Shown in pieces: positions 2,887-28,818 of a DNA stretch of 64,000 bases. Location: the NCBI GenBank assembly GCA_023551395.1, contig GCA_023551395.1_3945.1; one strand, 5' to 3'. This stretch comes from a phage. The notes under the pieces were generated by a model that was given only the letters and a program-made list of their open reading frames with translations, was not told where the DNA came from and did not search any database. The position numbers and the translations under genes were made by a program. Position 1 is the first letter of the stretch. Each line of letters starts with the position of its first letter.

Positions 2887-3440
2887 GATACTTAAAATAT
2901 GTTTCATGGATTTTCTTAGCTTTGTTAGAACCATTTGCAGCAACCCTAGCAGTCATCTTAGCACCTTTCGTAGTTCCATTCTACAGTGAGAAGAAAGGAC
3001 ATCTACCTTTTGGATTCAGATGGATGGAGACCTATGACAACCCGATTGATGGTGATGAAGGCCACGTTAAAAGATGGGCTAAGATTAGAAAGATTGGTAA
3101 GCTGGGTGTCTACATGCAGAGAGTTGGATGGCTCTGGAGAAACAAAGCTTATAACTTCTCTTACCATGTATTAGGAAGAGATGTAAAAGATGTTACTAAG
3201 TGGAAAGGTAATATCAACGTAAGTTCTGACCCTGAAGATAATCAGACTGGTTATCTCCTAATGTGGAACAGTAATGCTTGGGGATTATTCGCTTTTATCC
3301 CATCAATTAAAGTCTTTGGTAAACAGTTTTACTGGAGAATTTATATTGGATGGAAACTAAAAAGTGTTGTCCCAGAAGAAAGAGCATTCTCAAGGGAAAG
3401 AGTTATGTTGGCATTCTTTATTCATCCACTGAGAAAGTAA
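2883..3440 (+). CDS. hypothetical membrane protein (Trp-rich) inside tRNA array
   Basis: 185-aa ORF with hydrophobic N-terminal segment; translationally coupled to upstream ORF; no recognisable catalytic motif. Confidence 0.5.
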   Translation: MRYLKYVSWIFLALLEPFAATLAVILAPFVVPFYSEKKGHLPFGFRWMETYDNPIDGDEGHVKRWAKIRKIGKLGVYMQRVGWLWRNKAYNFSYHVLGRDVKDVTKWKGNINVSSDPEDNQTGYLLMWNSNAWGLFAFIPSIKVFGKQFYWRIYIGWKLKSVVPEERAFSRERVMLAFFIHPLRK

Positions 3441-3448
3441 AGATTTAA

Positions 3449-3524
3449 AGGGGATTAGTTTACAAGGTTAAAACCTCGGTCTTTGAAATCGAAGAAGTTG
3501 GTTCAATTCCAACATCCCCCGCCA
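3449..3524 (+). tRNA. tRNA-Gln (anticodon TTG)
   Basis: Acceptor AGGGGAT/ATCCCCC with 1:72 mismatch, D-stem GTTT/AAAC, anticodon stem TCGGT/ATCGA loop CTTTGAA, T-arm GTTGG-TTCAATT-CCAAC, CCA encoded. Confidence 0.7.
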
Positions 3525-3526
3525 AT

Positions 3527-3605
3527 GCTCCATTACTCCAATTGGCAGAGAGGCCAGACTTAAAATCTGTGTTATGTATCGGTTCGAATCCGATATGGAG
3601 TACCA
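3527..3605 (+). tRNA. tRNA with anticodon TAA (Leu by anticodon) but short variable arm
   Basis: Acceptor GCTCCAT/ATGGAGT, anticodon stem CAGA/TCTG loop CTTAAAA, 7-nt variable loop, perfect T-arm ATCGG-TTCGAAT-CCGAT, A discriminator, CCA encoded. Confidence 0.6.
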
Positions 3606-3610
3606 AATTT

Positions 3611-3685
3611 AGCGGTATAGCATAACTGGCAATGCAACAGTCTCTGAAGCTGTCCTATTAAGGTTCAAATCCTTATGCCGCTGCC
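3611..3685 (+). tRNA. tRNA-Gln (anticodon CTG)
   Basis: Acceptor AGCGGTA/TGCCGCT, D-stem GCAT/ATGC, anticodon stem ACAGT/GCTGT loop CTCTGAA, perfect T-arm TAAGG-TTCAAAT-CCTTA, CCA encoded. Confidence 0.65.
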
Positions 3686-3717
3686 ACTTCTAAGGGTTCT
3701 TACGAGAGTCCTTAAAT

Positions 3718-3793
3718 GTGGCCTTATCATAAATGGTAATGACCCATGCTGTGAACATGGTCTATACGGGTTCAAATCCCGTAGGTCACCCCA
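3718..3793 (+). tRNA. tRNA-His (anticodon GTG)
   Basis: Acceptor GTGGCCT/AGGTCAC, perfect D-stem TCAT/ATGA, perfect anticodon stem CCATG/CATGG loop CTGTGAA, C discriminator, CCA encoded. Confidence 0.8.
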
Positions 3794-3798
3794 ATTTA

Positions 3799-3875
3799 TA
3801 GTCCAAGTAGCTTATATGGTTAAAGCGCGTGTCTGAAAAACATGAGAAGAGGGTTCAAATCCCACTGGACTACCA
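3799..3875 (+). tRNA. tRNA-Phe (anticodon GAA), irregular acceptor/D junction
   Basis: Anticodon stem CGTGT/ACATG loop CTGAAAA, D-stem GCTT/AAGC, T-loop TTCAAAT; exact 5' end ambiguous between 3799 and 3801. Confidence 0.6.
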
Positions 3876-3891
3876 ATTTCAAAGGTGCTTA

Positions 3892-4626
3892 ATGAAAGAG
3901 ATGACAGAACAAGGTAAGGAGATTTTTAATCTCTTAAAAACCGGTAAAGGGTTCTCTAACCCACTTATTACTGGTGCAGCAGTTCTCGGTGGAACCGTAG
4001 CTGCTTCTACATCACTTGTAAGCTCTATTAGTTCTGTAACAGACCCTACAATGAAGGAGAAACTTGTTGCTGCTGGACTTACAACAGTCCTTCTAAACAG
4101 CTTTACAACAAGCCTTACAAGCACTACAGCAACTACTAAGACCCTAACAGACTACGGTCAAAAGTCTATTGATGAGTTTTCATCACGTATGCAGGTAGCA
4201 AAGGGATACTCCAATGTTATGGGTGCAGCAGGAGAACAAGTTGGTTGTACACCATTCAGTGGTATTATGGGTGTTGCTACAGAGTATGGTCAAAAAGCTA
4301 TTAACATGATTAACAGTACACTAGATAGTGTTAATGGTGTATTAAGTGACTTACAAGATGCTATTGATAAGGGTCTTGATACTGTTTCTGATTTAGCTAA
4401 CCAAGCTGTCAGTAAGATTAATGAAGGTATCTCAAAGATTACCGCTTATGCAGATGAAGTTGTGCAGATGATTGAAGAAGAAGCTTCCCTTATTGCAGAG
4501 TACCTTAAAACGAATATCAATGGGTTCTTAGCAGGTATCTTACCAGACTGGTTTGATGATGCTTGTAAAACTGGTGTGATTGACACTATTGCAACACCAG
4601 AAATGAAGAACGCATTACAGAAATAA
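3892..4626 (+). CDS. hypothetical Ser/Thr/Ala-rich protein
   Basis: ORF-track frame 3829-4626, start moved to internal ATG at 3892 (AAAGG ribosome-binding site) because upstream part overlaps tRNA-Phe. Confidence 0.5.
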   Translation: MKEMTEQGKEIFNLLKTGKGFSNPLITGAAVLGGTVAASTSLVSSISSVTDPTMKEKLVAAGLTTVLLNSFTTSLTSTTATTKTLTDYGQKSIDEFSSRMQVAKGYSNVMGAAGEQVGCTPFSGIMGVATEYGQKAINMINSTLDSVNGVLSDLQDAIDKGLDTVSDLANQAVSKINEGISKITAYADEVVQMIEEEASLIAEYLKTNINGFLAGILPDWFDDACKTGVIDTIATPEMKNALQK

Positions 4627-4627
4627 T

Positions 4628-4720
4628 GGAAGATTAACCCTAAAAGGTAAGGGAGCAGTTTGCTAAACTGCCAGTAGCTGAGAAATCGGTGTACCAGTTC
4701 AAGTCTGGTATCTTCCTCCA
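4628..4720 (+). tRNA. tRNA-Ser (anticodon GCT), long variable arm
   Basis: Perfect acceptor GGAAGAT/ATCTTCC, perfect anticodon stem GCAGT/ACTGC loop TTGCTAA, ~21-nt variable arm, T-arm ACCAG-TTCAAGT-CTGGT, CCA encoded. Confidence 0.8.
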
Positions 4721-4724
4721 ATTT

Positions 4725-4799
4725 GAATCCGTGACAGAAATGGCTATGTGCCTGTCTGCAAAACAGGTTTATAAGGGTTCGAGTCCCTTCGGATTCTCC
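4725..4799 (+). tRNA. tRNA-Cys (anticodon GCA)
   Basis: Perfect acceptor GAATCCG/CGGATTC, perfect anticodon stem CCTGT/ACAGG loop CTGCAAA, T-arm AAGGG-TTCGAGT-CCCTT, CCA encoded. Confidence 0.75.
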
Positions 4800-4837
4800 A
4801 AGTTATTTTACTCTCTCTCAATTAAAATAATAATAAT

Positions 4838-4897
4838 GCCCTGCTATAAGTATTCTTCCTTTCGCTACCGAAGAGTATTTTTAGACAGGGCTTTTTT
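4838..4897 (+). terminator. terminator closing tRNA array (nested hairpin + T6)
   Basis: Outer stem GCCCTG/CAGGGC enclosing an inner hairpin, followed by TTTTTT. Confidence 0.5.
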
Positions 4898-4962
4898 ACA
4901 GAGTTATACTTTATAAGAAGGCTTATACAGTATGTCTCTGACGTACATTGTGGTTTCTCCTT

Positions 4963-4988
4963 GACGGTCTCTGTACCGTCTTTTTTAA
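4963..4988 (+). terminator. intrinsic terminator
   Basis: Stem GACGGT/ACCGTC with loop CTCTGT followed by TTTTTT; second of two tandem terminators. Confidence 0.6.
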
Positions 4989-5022
4989 GGGGGAACATGG
5001 TTAATTATTTGGAGAAAACATA

Positions 5023-5223
5023 ATGAGCGAGACCGTTTATAAAGAACTTTATGAAGCTAACAAGAAGCTAGAATTTATGCAGAATACTATCATGGCAATT
5101 GCAGACAGATTATCTGTAGCAACAGGCATTGATATTAAAGAAGCATCTATGGATGCACTTCTTGATGCTGTTGATGCAAAGTTCGAAGTTAAGAAAGAAG
5201 AGACTGCTACAGACTCTGAATAA
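5023..5223 (+). CDS. hypothetical small acidic protein upstream of terminase
   Basis: 66-aa ORF with GGAG ribosome-binding site; position immediately before terL. Confidence 0.4.
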   Translation: MSETVYKELYEANKKLEFMQNTIMAIADRLSVATGIDIKEASMDALLDAVDAKFEVKKEETATDSE

Positions 5224-5244
5224 TTCTATTTGCGGAGGTGCTTA

Positions 5245-6846
5245 ATGGACTTAAATGCTGTTAAGCAGAAGCGAGTGGAAGATGTTAGGAAAGTCCTAGC
5301 TGGAGAGTTGGGGCTTTCTGATGAAGTAAAAGAAATTATCAAATCATTCGGTAAAGACCCCTCTAAATTCCTTCCAACTCAAATTCTGACTTTATTAAGA
5401 TACACACCAGACCAAGTTAGACTTATCTTCAAATTGATGACTGATAAGAACTATGTAGCCCCTCAGCCGGGTTCTCAAGAGGTCTTTTTAAATACTAATG
5501 CTGACTTGGTTCTTTATGGTGGTGCTGCTGGTGCTGGTAAAACTGCTGCATTGTTAATGGACTCTTTAAGATTTATTGAAGACCCTAACTATAATGCTGT
5601 ATATTTCCGTCGAAATACAACACAGTTACAAGGTGGTTTATGGCCTGCTGCAAAGAAACTATTTGGTAAGTTTGGTGGGGTTCCTCACGAGCAGAAGATG
5701 ACTATCACATTCCCTTCTGGGGCAACTATCAAGTTTACCTATCTAGAACTTGAAAAGCACGCTGAAGGTCATCAGGGTATTGAATACTCAGCTATTTACT
5801 TTGACGAAGGTACGCACTTCTCTGCTTCACAGATTTCATACCTACAGACTCGTCTACGTTCTGGGGCTGAAGGCGATTCATACATGAAGATTTCTATGAA
5901 CCCAGACAGAGACCATTTTATTTACGATTGGGTAGAACCTTTCTTAGATGAAGAAGGTTATCCAGACCCTGAAAAGTGTGGTCGTATTCGTTGGTATGTA
6001 ATGAATGATGGTGTGATGGTTTCTGATTGGGAGAGAGACAAGATTCTTGAAATGTTCCCTCTTGAGATTCCTCAAACATACACCTTTATCTCTGGTACGA
6101 TTGATGATAACCCAATCCTTGACTTCTTAGAACCTAAGTACCGTGGTAAGTTGGAAAACAACACCCCTGTAAACGTTGCAAGACTTCGTTTCGGTAACTG
6201 GAAGGCTCGTGCAGAAGGCTCAAACTACTGGCAAAGACAATGGTGTGAGATTGTTGATTCACTCCCAGAAGATGTATTTGATGTTAGAGCATGGGACTTA
6301 GCAGCAACTTTACCATCTGAGATTAACCCTAATCCAGACTGGACAGCAGGTGTTAAGATGGGTAAATCTAAAAAAGACGGTTGCTATTATATCATTGATG
6401 TAGTAAGATTTAGAGATAGACCCTCTGGAGTCGAAACACAAATTAATTTGACTGCTGAAAGTGACGGTAAGCGAACTGGTATTTTTATCCCTCAAGACCC
6501 AGGCGCTGCTGGTAAATCCTACGCAACATCCCTCATCAGGAAACTTGCCGAGAAAGGTTATCGAGCAAGAGCCAAACCAACAAATAAAGATAAAGTTACC
6601 CGCTTTGCGGGATTTTCTGCTGCTTCTGAAGCTGGACTTGTAAAAGTCTTGAGAGGTAGTTGGAACGAAGCTTATTTTCAAGAACTTGAAGGCTTTTGTG
6701 GTGACGGCAAAACTAAAGATGACCAAGTGGATGCTACCAGTGATGCTTTCAACAGTCTGAACGAAGTTAAATTATTCAAGCCACCATCAATGGGTGCTCA
6801 CACAGACTTAGTGAGAGGAAACCCATATGAGGGGCTTAGACGTTGA
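5245..6846 (+). CDS. terL: terminase large subunit
   Basis: Walker A-like VLYGGAAGAGKT near N-terminus plus acidic nuclease-type C-terminal half; start moved to ATG 5245 behind GGAGG (track start is TTG 5230). Confidence 0.9.
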   Translation: MDLNAVKQKRVEDVRKVLAGELGLSDEVKEIIKSFGKDPSKFLPTQILTLLRYTPDQVRLIFKLMTDKNYVAPQPGSQEVFLNTNADLVLYGGAAGAGKTAALLMDSLRFIEDPNYNAVYFRRNTTQLQGGLWPAAKKLFGKFGGVPHEQKMTITFPSGATIKFTYLELEKHAEGHQGIEYSAIYFDEGTHFSASQISYLQTRLRSGAEGDSYMKISMNPDRDHFIYDWVEPFLDEEGYPDPEKCGRIRWYVMNDGVMVSDWERDKILEMFPLEIPQTYTFISGTIDDNPILDFLEPKYRGKLENNTPVNVARLRFGNWKARAEGSNYWQRQWCEIVDSLPEDVFDVRAWDLAATLPSEINPNPDWTAGVKMGKSKKDGCYYIIDVVRFRDRPSGVETQINLTAESDGKRTGIFIPQDPGAAGKSYATSLIRKLAEKGYRARAKPTNKDKVTRFAGFSAASEAGLVKVLRGSWNEAYFQELEGFCGDGKTKDDQVDATSDAFNSLNEVKLFKPPSMGAHTDLVRGNPYEGLRR

Positions 6847-8329: not shown

Positions 8330-8829
8330 TGGCTGAAGTTATCTCTATTTCAAATGCTACACGAGTGCATTCGTATAGAGGTGTTCTTATTATCACTGAC
8401 AAATTATCTGTAGAGGCTGGCTCAAGGGTCAGCCTTTCAGGTTATGTAAGTGATGGTGGAACCTCTGACGTTTTCACTATTTGCAGGTTACTTGATGCAC
8501 CAATGAGTGGAAAACCGTTTATTTTAGGAAATTGTAGTGAAATTGTTAAAATTCCATTTGACAGTTCATGCCTTTTGGGTGTAAAGTTATATAACTGCGA
8601 GAATAAACGTATCAATGTTAATAGCATTGAAGCCGCTTTCATTACCCTCGACACTGCATTTCAATCTCCAATGACAGTTAATAAAGAAACAAACAGACTT
8701 GAGTACATTTTTTCACAAAATGATTACAAAGTACTTGTCAAAGGCAAAGTATATGATATGATTGTAAATGTGGTAGATGAATCTGGTAACCATTCAACAG
8801 TCCTTAAACAAAAAGTAAGGTTTAATTAA
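8329..8829 (+). CDS. hypothetical head-associated protein
   Basis: 166-aa ORF between portal and protease; ATGA overlap with portal stop. Confidence 0.4.
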   Translation: MAEVISISNATRVHSYRGVLIITDKLSVEAGSRVSLSGYVSDGGTSDVFTICRLLDAPMSGKPFILGNCSEIVKIPFDSSCLLGVKLYNCENKRINVNSIEAAFITLDTAFQSPMTVNKETNRLEYIFSQNDYKVLVKGKVYDMIVNVVDESGNHSTVLKQKVRFN

Positions 8830-9161
8830 TGGGAACATTAACTATTGATGGTAAGAATAAAATCCTCGCCACGCTAACCCCAACGACTATTATTTTACAC
8901 AATGTAGACCCAACGGCAGACCCTACAGCAAATAAGGTTACTCAGCCAGTGGCTATTTATTTTTCTGAACCGGATAATGGCTTAATTGCCTCAGAAGACA
9001 CAGTTAATATTACTGTCCCAGCTTCTGCAACGGTCTCACACTATAGCTTGTGGGATGCTAACGATAAATGCGTGGCAACTGGTGCTCTTAGCAAACCTCA
9101 ATTCTTCGCTGAAGAAGGTATCTATGTTATCTCTTCAGTCTCTGTAGATTTAAACAAATAG
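8829..9161 (+). CDS. hypothetical protein
   Basis: 110-aa ORF, TAATG coupling to upstream gene. Confidence 0.4.
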   Translation: MGTLTIDGKNKILATLTPTTIILHNVDPTADPTANKVTQPVAIYFSEPDNGLIASEDTVNITVPASATVSHYSLWDANDKCVATGALSKPQFFAEEGIYVISSVSVDLNK

Positions 9162-9172
9162 GGTGAGTAAAA

Positions 9173-10519
9173 ATGAGTTCGAATATCTTCAGACTTGCTG
9201 ATAGATTATTCAACCAACCTTTACTAGCCACTGAATCATTAGCTCACTCAGCAGCAACTTATGTGAATAACAGATTGCTGGGTGATGTCCAAGCAGCAGT
9301 AAACTTTGATAAACCCAAAGGTGAAGCAAGAAGTCTTTTAAAAGTAAAAGATGACATTGCTATTATTCCTATTATGGGTGGTTTAACCCATCGTATGACA
9401 TTCATTGATGCAATGTGTACAGGTGGATTAAGCTCTTATGAAGGTTTGCGTAGAGGCTTTGACGAAGCTTTAGCAGATGAGTCAATCAAGACTATTGTTC
9501 TGCACATCGATTCTGGTGGTGGTGAAGCTTCAGGTTGCTTTGAATTAGCACGTCACATTATGGCTTCAAGAGGCCAAAAGAAAATTATTGCTTATGTAGA
9601 TGAGTTCGCTTGTTCCGCTGCATACGCTCTTGCATCTTCTGCTGAAGAAATTATTGCATCACCAGATGCAGATGTTGGTTCTATTGGTGTAATTATGGTT
9701 CATCAGGAATTAACTAAGGCATTTGAAAAGAATGGCGTAACAATTAACGTCATCAAAGCTGGTGAGTTTAAAGGTATGGGTTCACCATTCCAAGCACTCT
9801 CAGAAGAAAGCAAAGAAAGACTTCAAAAGAGAATTAATGATACCTACGCAACCTTTACAGGTTTTGTAGCCGAATCTCGTAATCTCTCTGAAGAAGCTGT
9901 AAAGAATACTGAGGCGAATGTTTATTCTGCTCAGGAAGCTCTTGAACTTGGTTTAATTAACTCAATCATGTCTCAAGATGATTTCTTAAATTACTTACAA
10001 GGTTCTGAAGAGGCTCCTGTAAGTTTAAACGTTAACAATTCAGGTGAAGAAATGACTGAACAAGAAAAGCAAGAACTAGAAGCTTTGCGTCTTCAGGTTG
10101 CTCAAATGAAAGCTAAAGAACAGGAAGCTGCTTTGTCAGATTTGACTAATAAGATTTCTGCTTCTGCTGAAGCTTTTGGATTTGATGCAAAAGAAGCTGC
10201 AACGACTATTTTAGGTGCTGGTCTTGATAACCCTCTGAGTGTTCTGTTTATGAATGCTATGGAAGGTGCTAACCAGAAACTTAATGAAACTATCGCGTCC
10301 CATGCTTCTGCAATGGAAGAAAAAGAATCAGAAATTACCAAGCTGAAAGAAACTGCTGGTGCTGTTCTTGAACATTCTAATGCTATGGAAGAAATGGGTA
10401 ATGACGGCGAAGCTGATTTGGTTGAAGAAGAAAAAGAACCAGCTAAGAATGCTTCCGAAGACACCGCTGAACAACGCAAACTGGCTCTCCAGAATGCTCT
10501 AAAATCTCTTATCAAATAA
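9173..10519 (+). CDS. prohead protease fused to scaffold-like C-terminal domain
   Basis: N-terminal half resembles ClpP/S49-type serine peptidases (VLHIDSGGGEASG, IIAYVDEFACSAAYALAS); C-terminal ~150 aa acidic and Ala/Glu-rich, coiled-coil-like. Confidence 0.65.
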   Translation: MSSNIFRLADRLFNQPLLATESLAHSAATYVNNRLLGDVQAAVNFDKPKGEARSLLKVKDDIAIIPIMGGLTHRMTFIDAMCTGGLSSYEGLRRGFDEALADESIKTIVLHIDSGGGEASGCFELARHIMASRGQKKIIAYVDEFACSAAYALASSAEEIIASPDADVGSIGVIMVHQELTKAFEKNGVTINVIKAGEFKGMGSPFQALSEESKERLQKRINDTYATFTGFVAESRNLSEEAVKNTEANVYSAQEALELGLINSIMSQDDFLNYLQGSEEAPVSLNVNNSGEEMTEQEKQELEALRLQVAQMKAKEQEAALSDLTNKISASAEAFGFDAKEAATTILGAGLDNPLSVLFMNAMEGANQKLNETIASHASAMEEKESEITKLKETAGAVLEHSNAMEEMGNDGEADLVEEEKEPAKNASEDTAEQRKLALQNALKSLIK

Positions 10520-24526: not shown

Positions 24527-25714
24527 ATGGCAGTAGGTGAAATTCAAATTAGTGCCTTGCCTCAAGCAGCCTTACCAATTGACCTTAGTGATATCTTCCA
24601 TCTTAAACAAGGTATTGAGGATAAGAGATGCACTCTTGAGCAATTACTTGCTCCACACTCAAGCCTAAGAAATAACCCTCATGGTGTTACTAAAACACAA
24701 ATTGGTTTAGATAACGTTATCAATGCTCTTCAGTTAGTTGCTGCAAATAACTTATCAGACGTTACTAATGTAGCTCAGGCAAGAGCAAATCTACAGATTA
24801 TGTCTTCAGAAGAGGTTAATAATCTTGTTCAACAGCATATTCAGGACAAGAGCAACCCACATAATACAACTAAGGCACAGGTAGGATTGAGTAATGTTCA
24901 GAACTGGACAACATCTAACCTTTATAACGAAGATGCAGATAAGTATGCTACAGCAAGAGCAGTAAATAACTTGTACAAGGCTGTTCAGGCTTCTTATCCA
25001 GTAGGTACTATCCATCTTTCCATGAACTCTGCAAACCCTTCTACGTATTTAATTTGTGGAGGAACTTGGGAGTTAGTTTCAAAAGGTAGAGCATTGGTTG
25101 GTTATGACTCTGACACAAGACCAGCAGGTTCTGTATTTGGTGCTTCAACTGTCACTTTGTCAGTTAATAACATGCCTCAACACTCTCACTCTGTGTCTCT
25201 TAGTGGTGGTGGTCATACTCATAATGCAACGGTGTCAATTTCAGCTTTTGACTATGGGACTAAGACTACCAACTCTTTTGACTATGGAACTAAGACCACT
25301 AACACAACTGGTAACCACAACCATGTTGGTAGTGGGTCAACAAGTTCTGCTGGTGCTCATAACCACAGATTGACCTATGAATCAGGTGGTGGTTTATCGG
25401 AAAGACCTGCAATGGTTTGGTCTTCAAGGAATGACCAATCATGGTACTCAGCAGATGCTGTCTGTGAAGTAGCTGGTGCACACACTCACTCTTTCAGTGT
25501 TACCACTAACACAACTGGTAACCACAACCATACGGTTGGTATTGGTGCTCATAGCCACACAGTTGGTATTGGTTCGCATACACATAATGGTACTGTAACA
25601 GTTTCTTCTTCTGAACATACGCATAGCGGGAACACTAATAGTGTTGGTGGTGGACAAGCTTTCAATATTGAGCAGCCATCCTTCGTACTGTATGTATGGC
25701 AGAGAACGGCTTAA
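24527..25714 (+). CDS. tail fibre protein (short) with His-rich HxH C-terminal domain
   Basis: N-terminal tail-fibre-type repeats (NPHGVTKTQIGLDNV, NPHNTTKAQVGLSNV); C-terminal repeated NHNH/HTHS/HSHT motifs; C-terminus homologous to that of 25761-28139. Confidence 0.75.
   Translation: MAVGEIQISALPQAALPIDLSDIFHLKQGIEDKRCTLEQLLAPHSSLRNNPHGVTKTQIGLDNVINALQLVAANNLSDVTNVAQARANLQIMSSEEVNNLVQQHIQDKSNPHNTTKAQVGLSNVQNWTTSNLYNEDADKYATARAVNNLYKAVQASYPVGTIHLSMNSANPSTYLICGGTWELVSKGRALVGYDSDTRPAGSVFGASTVTLSVNNMPQHSHSVSLSGGGHTHNATVSISAFDYGTKTTNSFDYGTKTTNTTGNHNHVGSGSTSSAGAHNHRLTYESGGGLSERPAMVWSSRNDQSWYSADAVCEVAGAHTHSFSVTTNTTGNHNHTVGIGAHSHTVGIGSHTHNGTVTVSSSEHTHSGNTNSVGGGQAFNIEQPSFVLYVWQRTA
25247..25306. repeat. 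30-bp in-frame tandem duplication inside tail-fibre gene
   Basis: Two adjacent 30-nt units, ~26/30 identical, encoding FDYGTKTTNS / FDYGTKTTNT. Confidence 0.8.
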
Positions 25715-25723
25715 TTTCTTTAC

Positions 25724-25745
25724 AGGGGCTTTATAGCCCCTTTTA
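25724..25745 (+). terminator. intrinsic terminator
   Basis: Stem GGGGCT/AGCCCC with loop TTAT followed by TTTT. Confidence 0.6.
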
Positions 25746-25760
25746 AGAGGAAAATTTATA

Positions 25761-28139
25761 ATGGCAGATTACAAGTTGAGTGAATTAAACTCAATCGATA
25801 CAATCCGTTCAGATGACCTTCTTCATGTCAGAGTTAAAAAGAGACCTGAAATGCTGGGTGATGAAGACCGTCGAATGACCTATCAAGACTTCTTAGCATC
25901 TTTTAAACTCGAAAGATTTGTTCAGATTGCTGGTAGCACTATGACGGGTGACTTAGGTATTGTCAAACTTCTTTATGGTGGTAAGGCAGTATTTGACCCA
26001 ACAGGCTCTTCTGAGATTAATATTGGGGACGTTTTAAAGACTTTTAAAATTAACTCAAACGGTCTTAAGCTAACTATTGCAGACGCTTCAAGGTCGGCAA
26101 CTGTTTATCACACTCTGAATAAACCAAGTCCTAATGAACTTGGAATGAGAACTAATGAAGAGAATGATGCAAGATACTCAAGATTAGCTGCAAATAACAT
26201 CTTTACCTTCCAACAGGTTATTCAAGCAAATGGCGAAGCTATTAGACTAAAAAACTCTTCTGAGAACTCCCCGTTGTATATTAGAGGTCAGGATAGCACT
26301 GGTGCTAATAGGTGGTATGTAGGTAATGGTTCAGGGAATGATGATGTTATTATCCACAACTACAAGACAGGTTGTGAAGTTAATCTGTCTAGTGTTGCTG
26401 CTATTAGCAAGACACTAAGAATCACTGGTCAAGTTCAACCATCTGACTTCTCTAACTTAGATGCTAGATATTTTACTCAGACAGTAGCTAATCAGAGATT
26501 TGCACAGTTAAATGCTAGTAATGTTCTTTATGGTGCTAATACATTTAAAAAAGATGTTGTATTTAACTCAGATATCCCTGTCATTCTTAAGAGTCTAACA
26601 GCTAACAAACCATTATATATTCTAGGTAGAGATGACCAAAACTCCAACTTGTGGTTTGTTGGTAAAGGTGGTTCGGGAACAGAGATTAAATTCTATAACT
26701 ATGTGAGTGATACGGTTTTAGAGTTGTCTGAGACGGCAAGATTTAATAAAACTTTGAAGATTACTGGTCAAGTTCAACCATCTGATTGGACTAACATTGA
26801 CTCTAGATATATTCCAGCAGCAACTTTGAGTAATCTTGCTAAGATTAATGTGGCTAACACTTTTACAAATGTGCAGACTATTGTATCTAACAATGAAGGT
26901 CTAGTATTGAGGAACTTAACACAGGGTCAGCCACAATATATCCGTGGTGTTGATACTGCGAATGTATCTAGGTGGTGGGTAGGTGTAGGTGGTACAAATT
27001 CTACTGATGTAGCCTTAAACAACAGCTCATCTGGGACTCAAATTACCCTTATGACTTCAGCGATTAAGGCTAATAAGAATCTAACCATTACTGGTCAAGT
27101 TCAACCTTCTGATTGGTCTAACTTAGATGCTAGATATTTTGTTAAAACTCAGTTATTAAACCAATCCTTAATGACTGTCTCTGTAGATAACCTTGAAAAC
27201 CCTTCAGGTTTTAATCTTGGATATTCAGGTTTTGTCAGAAACAATGCGGTTACTAGTGGACTGAAAGAATTGGCAATCCATGTTGCGCACTCTAATAAGA
27301 CTGCTGCACATGCAAGAGGAATCTCTTTTGTGTATGGCTCAAATGGACTGGCAACATTTACCTATGCCTATGACAAAAATGGTGACTATGCCGGAGAAGC
27401 ACAGATTTATACAACTGATTTTAAACCAACCCCTTCAGATATTGGTGCATACACTAAAGCTGAAACTGACCAGAAGATTGCACAAGCTGTAAGCGACTCC
27501 ACAGACCTTAACAAAATCTATCCAGTGGGTATTGTAACGTGGTTTAACAGTAATGTTGACCCTAATACGGCACTTCCTGGTCTAACTTGGACGTACCTGA
27601 ACAATGGTGTTGGTAGAACTATCAGAATTGCAGCAGCAAACGGTTCAGATGTTGCTACAACTGGTGGTTCAGATTCTGTGACGTTAGCTGTTGGTAACTT
27701 ACCATCACACACCCATAGTTTCTCTGCTACCACTTCATCTTTTGATTATGGTACGAAGAACACTAATAGCACTGGTGGTCATACTCACTCTGTAAGTGGT
27801 ACAACAAGTGCTGCTGGTAACCACGCTCACCACTTAGGTCTGCTATTGGTTAATGGTGGTGATGCTCAGTACGGATATACCACTATTGGTAACAATAAGA
27901 CAAGAACTCTTGACTGGCTTGACAGAACTGATAACAAATTCCCTAACACTAACACAACTGGTAACCATACACACACATGGTCTGGTACTACAAGTAACAC
28001 TGGTGCTCACACCCACTCTGTAGGTATCGGTGCTCACACTCATACAGTTAGTGGTAACACTGGTGGTACAGGTTCTGGTTCAGCATTTAGTGTTACTAAC
28101 CAGTTCTACAAGTTAATGGCTTGGGTAAGAACTGCTTAA
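25761..28139 (+). CDS. tail fibre protein (long) with three internal ~95-aa repeats and HxH C-terminal domain
   Basis: 792 aa; three copies of ...ITGQVQPSD(F/W)(S/T)N(L/I)D(A/S)RY...; C-terminal [27 protein letters not shown] motifs shared with 24527-25714. Confidence 0.8.
26270..27130. repeat. three tandem ~285-bp coding repeats within long tail-fibre gene
   Basis: DNA segments containing ACTGGTCAAGTTCAACC(A/T)TCTGA recur at ~26424, ~26764 and ~27091. Confidence 0.75.
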
Positions 28140-28218: not shown

Positions 28219-28416
28219 ATGCCTACAATCCTAGCAATTCTTCTAAAAAATCTAGGTAGCTTCTTCTGGAAACTCATTTTATCCCTTCTAAGTGAATACA
28301 TGATTGAGAAAGTGTTCTTTAGGCTTGCAAGATACCTTGCGAGTAAAACAGACACACCTATTGATGATGAGTTCGTAGATAACTTAGAAAAAGCTTTTAA
28401 GGGGGAGAATAAATGA
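28219..28416 (+). CDS. hypothetical small hydrophobic protein
   Basis: 65-aa ORF with hydrophobic N-terminus downstream of promoter; overlaps start of next ORF. Confidence 0.35.
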   Translation: MPTILAILLKNLGSFFWKLILSLLSEYMIEKVFFRLARYLASKTDTPIDDEFVDNLEKAFKGENK

Positions 28417-28784
28417 AGTGGCTAGAGGAAGCTTTTAAAAATAATATTGGTGCAATTGTTGTTGGTATTTTTAGTGTTATTGGGATGTATACCACTATGC
28501 AAGTTTCAAGTGGTAAGCAAGAAGTGTCTGTCACAACAAAGTTACAGCAGCTAGATAATTATTCCAAAAGTAACTATTCAGCTATTCGTGATTTACAGTC
28601 TGACATGAGACTGATTCAGCTAGGGATGGAGAACCAGAAAGTTCAGTTAGAGAACGTTAAGGGTGAGAATGCAAAACTTACCAAAACTCTTGATAAATTC
28701 TCTGACAGTGTGAATAATCTGGCTCAATCAGTATCAGCCTTGCAAGCTATTACTGAAAAGAACACAAAGAATACTGAAAAATAA
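28413..28784 (+). CDS. membrane-anchored coiled-coil protein (possible lysis/spanin-like or fibre accessory)
   Basis: 123 aa: N-terminal transmembrane segment (IGAIVVGIFSVIGMY) then heptad-like helical region; function not assignable. Confidence 0.4.
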   Translation: MKWLEEAFKNNIGAIVVGIFSVIGMYTTMQVSSGKQEVSVTTKLQQLDNYSKSNYSAIRDLQSDMRLIQLGMENQKVQLENVKGENAKLTKTLDKFSDSVNNLAQSVSALQAITEKNTKNTEK

Positions 28785-28789
28785 AGTTT

Positions 28790-28818
28790 AAGGCTCCTTT
28801 TTACGGGAGCCTTTTTTG
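28790..28818. terminator. terminator between convergent gene blocks
   Basis: Stem AGGCTCC/GGAGCCT followed by TTTTTTGTTTT on + strand; sits between + gene ending 28784 and - gene ending 28821. Confidence 0.7.

Follow-up and report, generated by a model that had tools for sequence, protein, structure and literature searches.

Two tail fibre genes of a Felix O1-like phage with T4 gp37-type tips and a long-fibre shaft that appears to change by cassette replacement

What are the histidine-rich ends and the internal repeats of a phage's tail fibres, and by which route do such fibres change? The question is raised by positions 24,527 to 28,139 of a 64,000-nucleotide (nt) stretch of phage DNA (NCBI GenBank assembly GCA_023551395.1, contig GCA_023551395.1_3945.1), called the window below. 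A preliminary description of this locus, made from the letters alone, had seen two tail fibre genes sharing a His-rich C-terminal module, the longer one with three tandem repeats of ~95 amino acids (aa), and had proposed that the shaft varies in length by modules and that the tips are exchanged between the two fibres. Taking all the evidence jointly, we consider it very probable that the two genes encode the short tail fibre (STF) and the long tail fibre (LTF) of a Felixounavirus, that both fibres end in tips of the phage T4 gp37 type, that the LTF shaft is built of pyramid-like domains, and that these fibres change by replacement of cassettes and not by a change in copy number.

Both genes were found where the preliminary description had placed them, as open reading frames (ORFs) on the plus strand (Table 1). 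The LTF matches phrog_4277 over its full length (residues 1-792 against 1-780 of 780, E=0), and the STF is 97-99% identical to its counterparts in the IMG/VR relatives L001, L008 and L012. In megablast searches, the 3.6-kb fibre region was 96.6% identical at the nt level to that of Felixounavirus LF82P5 and matched 243 phage records, nearly all of them from Felix O1-like phages of Escherichia coli, Salmonella and Shigella. On the 5' side, the STF and the LTF are preceded by two wedge proteins, the first of them of the Baseplate_J type, and by a 100-aa protein, which is also the order of ORF73-77 in Felix O1. This synteny, together with the homology, identifies the two ORFs as the STF and LTF of the genus, that is, as the genes for the baseplate fibres of a myovirus of Felix O1 type (Felixounavirus). 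The homologues of the STF are Felix O1 ORF76, VpaE1 gp74 and Bas63 gp26, and those of the LTF are Felix O1 ORF77, VpaE1 gp75, Bas63 gp27 and Sf14 gp53. For the comparisons that follow, both fibres were extracted from 28 IMG/VR loci of Felixounavirus type, which together with the window makes 29 LTFs. Among these relatives the N-terminal parts are conserved: residues 1-150 of the STF are 72-100% identical to the 28 counterparts (calculated in 50-aa blocks) and residues 1-139 of the LTF are 93-100% identical in close relatives.

The architecture of such fibres is already published; the preliminary observation is correct and the genes are ordinary. In 2015, both fibres of VpaE1 were reported to be homologous to the T4 gp37 adhesin, with a conserved N-terminus and a highly variable middle (PMC4690856). 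The cryo-electron microscopy study of Bas63, from 2025, described a collar, a needle and a head, with the STF carrying seven di-histidine motifs and the LTF six and one additional His, as well as beta domains that recur in the LTF, tips that vary and repeat domains that were unexpectedly variable (PMC12609058). For Sf14 gp53, domains similar to T7 gp17 and Mu gp49 and a T4 gp37-like tip were reported, also in 2025 (PMC11821841). For the fibres of both phages, models from cryo-electron microscopy and AlphaFold3 are in print.

We aligned the C-terminal parts of the two fibres with each other. BLASTP gave 35% identity over 233 aa between STF 136-346 and LTF 560-763 (E=3e-22), which bears out the homology of the two C-termini. 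The motifs quoted in the preliminary description are all present (NHNH, HTHS and HSHT in the STF, and likewise those quoted for the LTF), the STF has two copies of FDYGTK and the LTF has one, and the two proteins end alike (...YVWQRTA and ...MAWVRTA, respectively). The HxH motif is enriched ~4.6-4.8-fold over composition-preserving shuffles: STF residues 216-370 contain nine copies (1.95 expected, with a maximum of 8 in 5000 shuffles) and LTF residues 646-765 contain six (1.26 expected). Histidine accounts for ~11% of these segments versus 0.9-2.5% elsewhere in each protein.

When the PDB was searched with phmmer, STF 146-367 matched residues 18-228 of the T4 gp37 tip (2XGF; E=2.3e-26) and LTF 645-771 matched residues 94-218 of the same structure (E=1.3e-20). 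The seven HxH motifs of T4 align with H230, H264, H278, H319, H333, H342 and H351 of the STF, which has two more, at H219 and H364. The LTF, with HxH at 650, 674, 688, 736, 750 and 759, has counterparts of six of the seven T4 motifs and is devoid of the seventh. In both fibres a His-poor head is flanked by two HxH blocks in register with T4. The collar of the STF aligns with that of 2XGF and with T4 gp10, and the LTF collar matches Gp10_C with E=0.0056, below the cut-off. Altogether, these alignments indicate by homology that both fibres carry a tip of the T4 gp37 type, made of a collar, an out-and-back needle and a head at its far end.

In T4 gp37, the HxH motifs coordinate iron along an interwoven needle and a small head contacts the receptor (PMC12609058, PMC10844046). 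Given this layout and the aligned motifs, the His-rich stretch is therefore expected to be a structural needle, and the receptor-binding part to be the His-poor loop (residues ~283-316 of the STF and 693-733 of the LTF). By analogy with T4 gp37, the HxH motifs would bind metal, and each of the two fibres would be a homotrimer like its homologues, in keeping with the cryo-electron microscopy and AlphaFold3 models of Bas63 (PMC12609058). Three chains would then provide six His per site, and stacked, octahedrally coordinated Fe2+ sites, with motifs placed on both the outgoing and the returning strands, would rivet the needle. The earlier view of the His-rich termini as metal-binding tip domains agrees with the homology to 2XGF, except that the HxH motifs would lie in the needle that carries the tip and not in the head that contacts the receptor. 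One could also imagine, as the wording of that view implied, that the His-rich region is itself a receptor-binding surface, for instance by metal-mediated binding of lipopolysaccharide (LPS) phosphates; it is C-terminal and rich in His, and the tip is known to set specificity. We regard this as extremely unlikely. The HxH positions are conserved at 60-100%, while the hypervariable part is the His-poor loop; moreover, the motifs of 2XGF face inward and coordinate Fe, and it is the head that contacts the receptor (PMC12609058, PMC10844046).

The shaft of the LTF contains three repeats, as had been described. Their ITGQVQPSD motifs start at nt 26421, 26760 and 27087, at most 4 nt from the positions given before; the repeats recur with a period of 98-113 aa (in nt, 339 and 327), the earlier figure of ~95 aa corresponding to the length of the Pfam core. 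The three units are pairwise 40-44% identical, with alignment scores 33-41 standard deviations above those of shuffled sequences, and Pfam PF20744 (gp37_trimer) recognises three stretches in the LTF (E=2.6e-71, 236.1 bits versus a gathering cut-off of 21.7). At the DNA level, the only recognisable part is a 66-nt linker whose three copies are 76-86% identical. Comparison of the LTF with itself by BLASTP returned the trivial match alone, and Tandem Repeats Finder misses the ~330-nt repeats of the LTF. The large repeats are thus a protein-level feature accompanied by a 66-nt linker. What Tandem Repeats Finder does report is confined to duplications of 27-30 nt in the STF needle. Two of these are in frame, one of 30 nt (FDYGTKTTN twice, at 25245-25303) and one of 27 nt (HxHTVGIGA twice, at 25516-25580).

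A profile built from 25 diverse repeat alleles matched the pyramid region of T7 gp17 (residues 367-441; 4A0U, 4A0T and 7BOZ) with E=1.6e-7 to 3.2e-7, and the Mu fibre 5YVQ marginally (E=0.08). Judging from these profile matches, the LTF repeats are related to the pyramid domain of T7 gp17. No chain of T4 gp34 (5NXH) was recovered from the PDB by phmmer or by the repeat profile, the published likeness to that protein being a structural one. We also looked for a cryptic fourth or fifth repeat: local alignment of residues 51-139 with the units gave z<1, and an 80-unit profile compared by hhalign with residues 45-139 and 460-585 gave a probability of 1-2%, so that these searches yielded no additional repeat. 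In the same type of comparison the N-terminal part of the LTF, residues 1-139, proved unrelated to the repeats. The linker motif was also found, once per protein and at ~64% identity, in the tail fibre protein gpH of P2-like phages (e.g. gene H of L-413C, NC_004745), and the pyramid-domain-plus-linker module would therefore be shared with peduoviruses.

Does the number of repeats vary, as a length-adjusting module would require? The preliminary description had suggested a modular variation of shaft length, with repeats gained or lost to tune it. The count is three in all 29 LTFs. A tblastn search with the linker peptide gave 840 sites in 334 records; among the matches listed, the Ounavirinae records have three linker sites each, except REP7 with four, and P2-like gpH has one, and the arithmetic of the sites fits ~253 genomes with three. 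The Bas63 study agrees that the repeat number is not variable (PMC12609058). It is true that the 66-nt linkers, as direct repeats of the identity given above, could in principle allow unequal crossing-over, and that the LTF does range from 777 to 849 aa. However, these length differences arise at a constant repeat count and map to residues 460-580, of which relatives have alternative versions, some ~60 aa longer, and to the head. Furthermore, the retracted fibre docks along the sheath (PMC12609058), which would constrain its length. We therefore give length tuning by repeats almost no credence. That three repeats are strictly kept, despite linkers that invite unequal crossing-over, suggests instead that fibre length is constrained, and docking to the tail sheath is a likely cause. 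The comparison of relatives returned a constant repeat number on the one side and hypervariable tip sequences on the other. The needle behaves differently from the shaft, in that its length does vary by repeat number: relatives have one to four FDYG.K units on the outgoing strand and three to five matching 9-aa HxH..IGA units on the returning one.

In the record of Escherichia phage REP7 (OQ174506), the best-scoring of the four linker sites lies at nt 708-776, so that an effect of assembly or of a terminal repeat is likely. Two relatives have LTF ORFs truncated before the collar and tip, namely L022 (EC6-type; 8382-10007, 541 aa) and L028 (Si3-type; 8380-9741, 453 aa). A frameshift introduced in sequencing may have caused the truncation, or the ORFs may be genuine pseudogenes; EC6 and Si3 were flagged as probably incomplete in the Bas63 paper (PMC12609058).

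If the number of repeats is fixed, their sequence is not. In close relatives the N-terminus and the collar of the LTF are at least 93% identical to those of the window, and the repeat cores are either ~45% or at least 86% identical, the combinations being discordant. Each repeat varies independently of the other two: in L012, for example, repeats 1, 2 and 3 are 100, 44 and 96% identical. The repeat 1 allele is found at 100% in L012, at 86% in L024, whose fibre is otherwise distant, and at position 3 in L022/EC6 (78%). Repeat 3 is 95-96% identical in L006 and L012, 64-78% in L002, L009-L011, L015 and L019-L021, and 39-54% in most relatives. DNA identity profiles display blocks of ~250 nt at ~50% identity bounded by linkers at 82-100%; the 90-nt bin that holds the linker stays at 82-100% in all relatives, with flanks at ~50%. 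At a threshold of 65% identity, the 87 repeat units fall into 25 clusters, most of them position-specific. Movement between positions is clear in two cases, the resemblance of window repeat 1 to EC6 repeat 3 (78%) and that of L004 repeat 1 to L005 repeat 3 (90%), both at the aa level. These mosaic patterns indicate that the LTF changes by replacement of cassettes of fixed size, and not by copy number.

Fast divergence in place, by drift or by diversifying selection acting on point mutations, would make the same repeats variable with no exchange of cassettes. Mutational tolerance has indeed been offered as one explanation (PMC12609058), and fibre point mutations arise in short challenge experiments (PMC6669636). 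We nevertheless consider it very unlikely that this accounts for the variability. When repeats of one position are compared, the identities form one group at 30-60% and a second at 70-100%; the N-termini of these proteins all lie at 70-100%. Near-identical cassettes occur in otherwise divergent fibres, and vice versa. The breakpoints are sharp, each confined to a few tens of nt at a linker, and one and the same cassette can be met at different repeat positions, in the other fibre gene and in T-even phages. Under cassette replacement, the linkers of the shaft and the FDYGTK/HxH 'His-box' stretches of the needle would serve as homology anchors, and the exchanged material between them would be either a repeat core of ~250 nt or a head plus inner needle of ~100-300 nt. 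Such exchange appears to take place among Felixounaviruses and, occasionally, from one repeat position to another, from one fibre gene to the other within a phage, or with T-even gp37.

The window itself provides an illustration. Its LTF equals that of LF82P5 except in the core of repeat 2, which is identical (100%) to LF82P2 and only ~50% identical in nt to LF82P5; LF82P2, for its part, departs from the window in the core of repeat 3. By sequence, the window LTF looks like a recombinant of the LF82P5 and LF82P2 types. The repeat 2 allele is rare, since one of 234 records carries it at 95% identity or more (LF82P2), five records, including the Salmonella phage SP4 SHa-2019, are at 80-90%, and the remaining 228 are below 60%. 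The names LF82P2 and LF82P5 suggest isolation on E. coli LF82; the records are without a host.

The heads are hypervariable as well. The STF head is 0-14% identical to those of 23 of the 28 relatives and 94-100% identical to the other five (among them L001, L008, L012 and L026); the LTF head is 7-12% identical to most relatives and 90-95% in L001, L012 and L026. The HxH needle flanks are conserved at 60-100% identity, and the hypervariable part of the tip is the head between them. The STF head allele of the window occurs in 32 phage records, all of Felixounavirus, and the LTF head allele in 38, which include T-even gp37 genes.

Exchange of tips between the two fibres, the other proposal of the preliminary description, is seen in relatives and not in the window. 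In L003 (UAB_Phi87 type), the STF and the LTF carry an identical head of ~40 aa within a 200-nt tract at 91% identity, and Felix O1 itself (L029, NC_005282; ORFs 3158-4324 and 4375-6723) has the same head allele on both fibres. In total, 131 places in 78 records (72 from Salmonella phages) have this 'GG(H/R)YGGDSIGGKQRVQ' head, so that at least ~53 phages, mostly of Salmonella, carry it on both fibres. In the window, the STF and LTF heads are unrelated, and the best DNA matches between the two genes are 69-75% over 53-116 nt, plus an exact 21-nt motif coding TNTTGNH. A recent conversion between the two window genes was rejected on this ground, the similarity reaching at most 75% over 116 nt. 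As its heads differ, this phage of E. coli type probably presents two specificities.

Head cassettes may also cross the limits of phage families. The tract of the LTF listed in Table 1 is 84.2% identical in nt, over 316 nt and without a gap, to gp37 of Shigella phage SHBML-50-1, and 88% identical in aa over 107 aa. Three T4-like phages, AV122, BYEP01 and sutha, have the head at 85% aa identity, and N2 has a 79% version. The likeness of this tract to Tequatrovirus gp37 points to a cassette having passed from one phage family to another. The LPS outer core is required by AV122 (PMC10844046) and the genus of the window depends on LPS (PMC8594841), which suggests an LPS-core receptor for the window LTF; most likely, both heads recognise LPS-core structures.

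One would also wonder what the benefit of a variable shaft could be. A possible answer is that the pyramid cassettes are themselves specificity modules, acting as lateral glycan sites or being the targets of defence systems, and are kept diverse by selection. In support of this idea, the 29 phages yield at least 25 alleles that are less than 65% identical, alleles recur across phages of E. coli and of Salmonella and assort independently, and host recognition and escape from defence are both listed as possibilities in the Bas63 study (PMC12609058). On the other hand, the fixed number and size of the cassettes fit a structural spacer with a free surface as well, and we find a role in specificity conceivable and rather unlikely. 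A broader version of the idea would treat the fibres as a five-slot combinatorial system, in which three shaft slots and two head slots draw on shared, ancient allele pools and the shaft cassettes are selected for specificity or evasion of defence. Alleles would then travel among phages that infect different hosts, from one shaft slot to another and from fibre to fibre, with T-even gp37 as both donor and recipient. We put this forward tentatively, as a doubtful proposal; if true, it would account for the shaft variability that was called unexpected in PMC12609058 and would give engineers crossover points at the 66-nt linkers and the His boxes.

Several points weigh against the joint explanation by T4-type tips, pyramid-like shaft domains and cassette replacement. 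The Bas63 study counts five beta-helix domains and finds them similar to T4 gp34 (PMC12609058), whereas the LTF of the window shows three sequence repeats, flanks devoid of profile similarity and no match to gp34. Recombination is a mechanism that we infer from the mosaic patterns of the sequences. The receptor assignment leans on a generalisation at the level of the genus and on a single T-even phage whose head is 85% identical. Finally, no gp38-type chaperone was recognised adjoining the fibres when the fibre neighbourhood was searched, the two downstream ORFs matching only PHROGs of unknown function; T4 gp37, for its part, needs both gp38 and gp57A.

The nearest known systems are gp26/gp27 of Bas63 (Escherichia phage JohannRWettstein, of the same genus) and gp52/gp53 of Sf14 (of the same subfamily). 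They share with the window the gene order, fibres of ~390 and ~790 aa, T4 gp37-like HxH tips on both fibres with six HxH and an extra adjacent His in the LTF, LTF beta domains with helical linkers, variable tips and repeats, and a constant repeat number. The window differs from Bas63 by its other alleles, by nine HxH in the STF by motif count versus seven reported, and by three sequence-detectable repeats versus five structural domains reported. As far as we found, the Bas63 and Sf14 papers are without a cassette mosaic, head sharing between STF and LTF, or shifts of position. VpaE1 gp74 and gp75 are orthologous, but the VpaE1 LTF has a head allele of T4 type (HSHYIEAWNGTG...) and the window another.

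T4 gp37 (2XGF) resembles the window tips in the homology of collar, needle and head, in the HxH register, in a variable head between conserved His boxes and in a C-terminal ending of one kind (...W.RTA in the window, ...VRLA in T4). Nevertheless, the T4 tip ends a four-protein fibre and belongs to a distal part of 1026 aa, whereas the window tips stand on single-protein fibres of 395 and 792 aa that attach directly to a simple Mu-like baseplate, with two paralogous tips per virion and without a recognisable gp38-type chaperone gene adjoining. With T7 gp17 (4A0T/4A0U and 7BOZ; PF20744), the likeness is that each LTF repeat matches PF20744 and that the repeat profile matches the pyramid at 367-441. 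T7 gp17 has one pyramid domain followed by a tip domain, unlike the LTF of the window with its three chained copies, conserved linkers and other tip.

For annotation, these are well-characterised tail fibre genes and there is nothing to re-interpret. A map at the level of cassettes is, as far as we found, absent from the fibre papers cited: this concerns the junctions at linkers and His boxes, the shuffling across positions, fibres and families, and the LF82P5/LF82P2 recombinant. Such a map is an instance of the well-known principle of fibre mosaicism. Its practical value lies in the fine mapping of exchange points, namely the linkers of 66 nt together with the FDYGTK and HxH boxes. As these bound freely swapped cassettes, they would be natural splice sites for the retargeting of Felix O1-type phages, which are in use for Salmonella diagnostics and biocontrol.

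Table 1. Features of the fibre locus and its 3' neighbourhood (positions in the window; residues of the encoded protein).
Feature	Position (nt)	Strand	Residues (aa)	Basis or remark
STF gene	24527-25714	+	395 in total	ORF; phrog_2097 tail fibre, E=8.6e-137; synteny with Felix O1
STF N-terminal part, putative baseplate binding and shaft	24527-24976	+	1-150	Conserved in the genus; role after Bas63 cryo-electron microscopy (PMC12609058)
STF collar	24977-25171	+	~151-215	YPVGTIH...; Pfam PF21939 Gp10_C, E=1.4e-18, above cut-off
STF needle, outgoing strand	25172-25372	+	~216-282	HxH at 219, 230, 264, 278; two FDYGTKTTN units
STF head cassette	25373-25474	+	~283-316	TYESGGGLSERPAMVWSSRNDQSWYSADAVCEV; presumed receptor-contacting tip
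STF needle, returning strand, and C-terminal end	25475-25711	+	317-395	HxH at 319, 333, 342, 351, 364
LTF gene	25761-28139	+	792 in total	ORF; phrog_4277, E=0; synteny
LTF N-terminal conserved part, putative baseplate/platform attachment and first shaft segment	25761-26177	+	1-139	
LTF repeat 1	26178-26471	+	140-237	T7 gp17-pyramid-like cassette (predicted)
LTF repeat 2	26472-26810	+	238-350	Core 26511-26762 is a rare allele
LTF repeat 3	26811-27137	+	351-459	
Conserved linker 1	26409-26474	+		Copy of 66-nt intragenic direct repeat; putative recombination junction
Conserved linker 2	26748-26813	+		Copy 2 of the 66-nt direct repeat
Conserved linker 3	27075-27140	+		Copy 3 of the 66-nt direct repeat
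LTF variable post-repeat shaft segment	27138-27500	+	460-580	4-93% identity; weak gp37_C match
LTF collar	27501-27695	+	~581-645	93-100% in close relatives; aligns with STF collar (BLASTP)
LTF needle, outgoing strand	27696-27836	+	~646-692	HxH at 650, 674, 688 (HAHH); one FDYGTK
Needle-plus-head tract common with Tequatrovirus gp37	27733-28048	+		Shigella phage SHBML-50-1
LTF head cassette	27837-27959	+	~693-733	7-12% identity to most relatives
LTF needle, returning strand, and C-terminal end	27960-28136	+	734-792	HxH at 736, 750, 759
Small ORF	28219-28416	+	65 in total	Hydrophobic; phrog_402 or phrog_4038, function-unknown PHROGs only
Small ORF	28413-28784	+	123 in total	N-terminal hydrophobic segment, then long polar Q/K/E-rich stretch
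Bidirectional terminator-like hairpin	28790-28813	.		Closes the plus-strand structural block; sign of GC skew flips

On the 3' side of the LTF, the two small ORFs match phrog_402 and phrog_4038, with a faint hint of an Rz-like spanin, and are candidates for a role in lysis or in fibre assembly. A scan for promoters and terminators gave nothing over shuffle expectation save the hairpin that follows them. Beyond the hairpin lie minus-strand genes, for a thymidylate synthase and a dihydrofolate reductase-like protein. A 'cos site' annotated within the LTF gene of KhF2 is an annotation of a 10-nt motif and was disregarded. Lastly, the records GU169904 (Staphylococcus phage SA1) and MG065664 (Campylobacter phage A132) carry Felixounavirus fibre sequence, which probably reflects chimeric or contaminated assembly and not a host jump.

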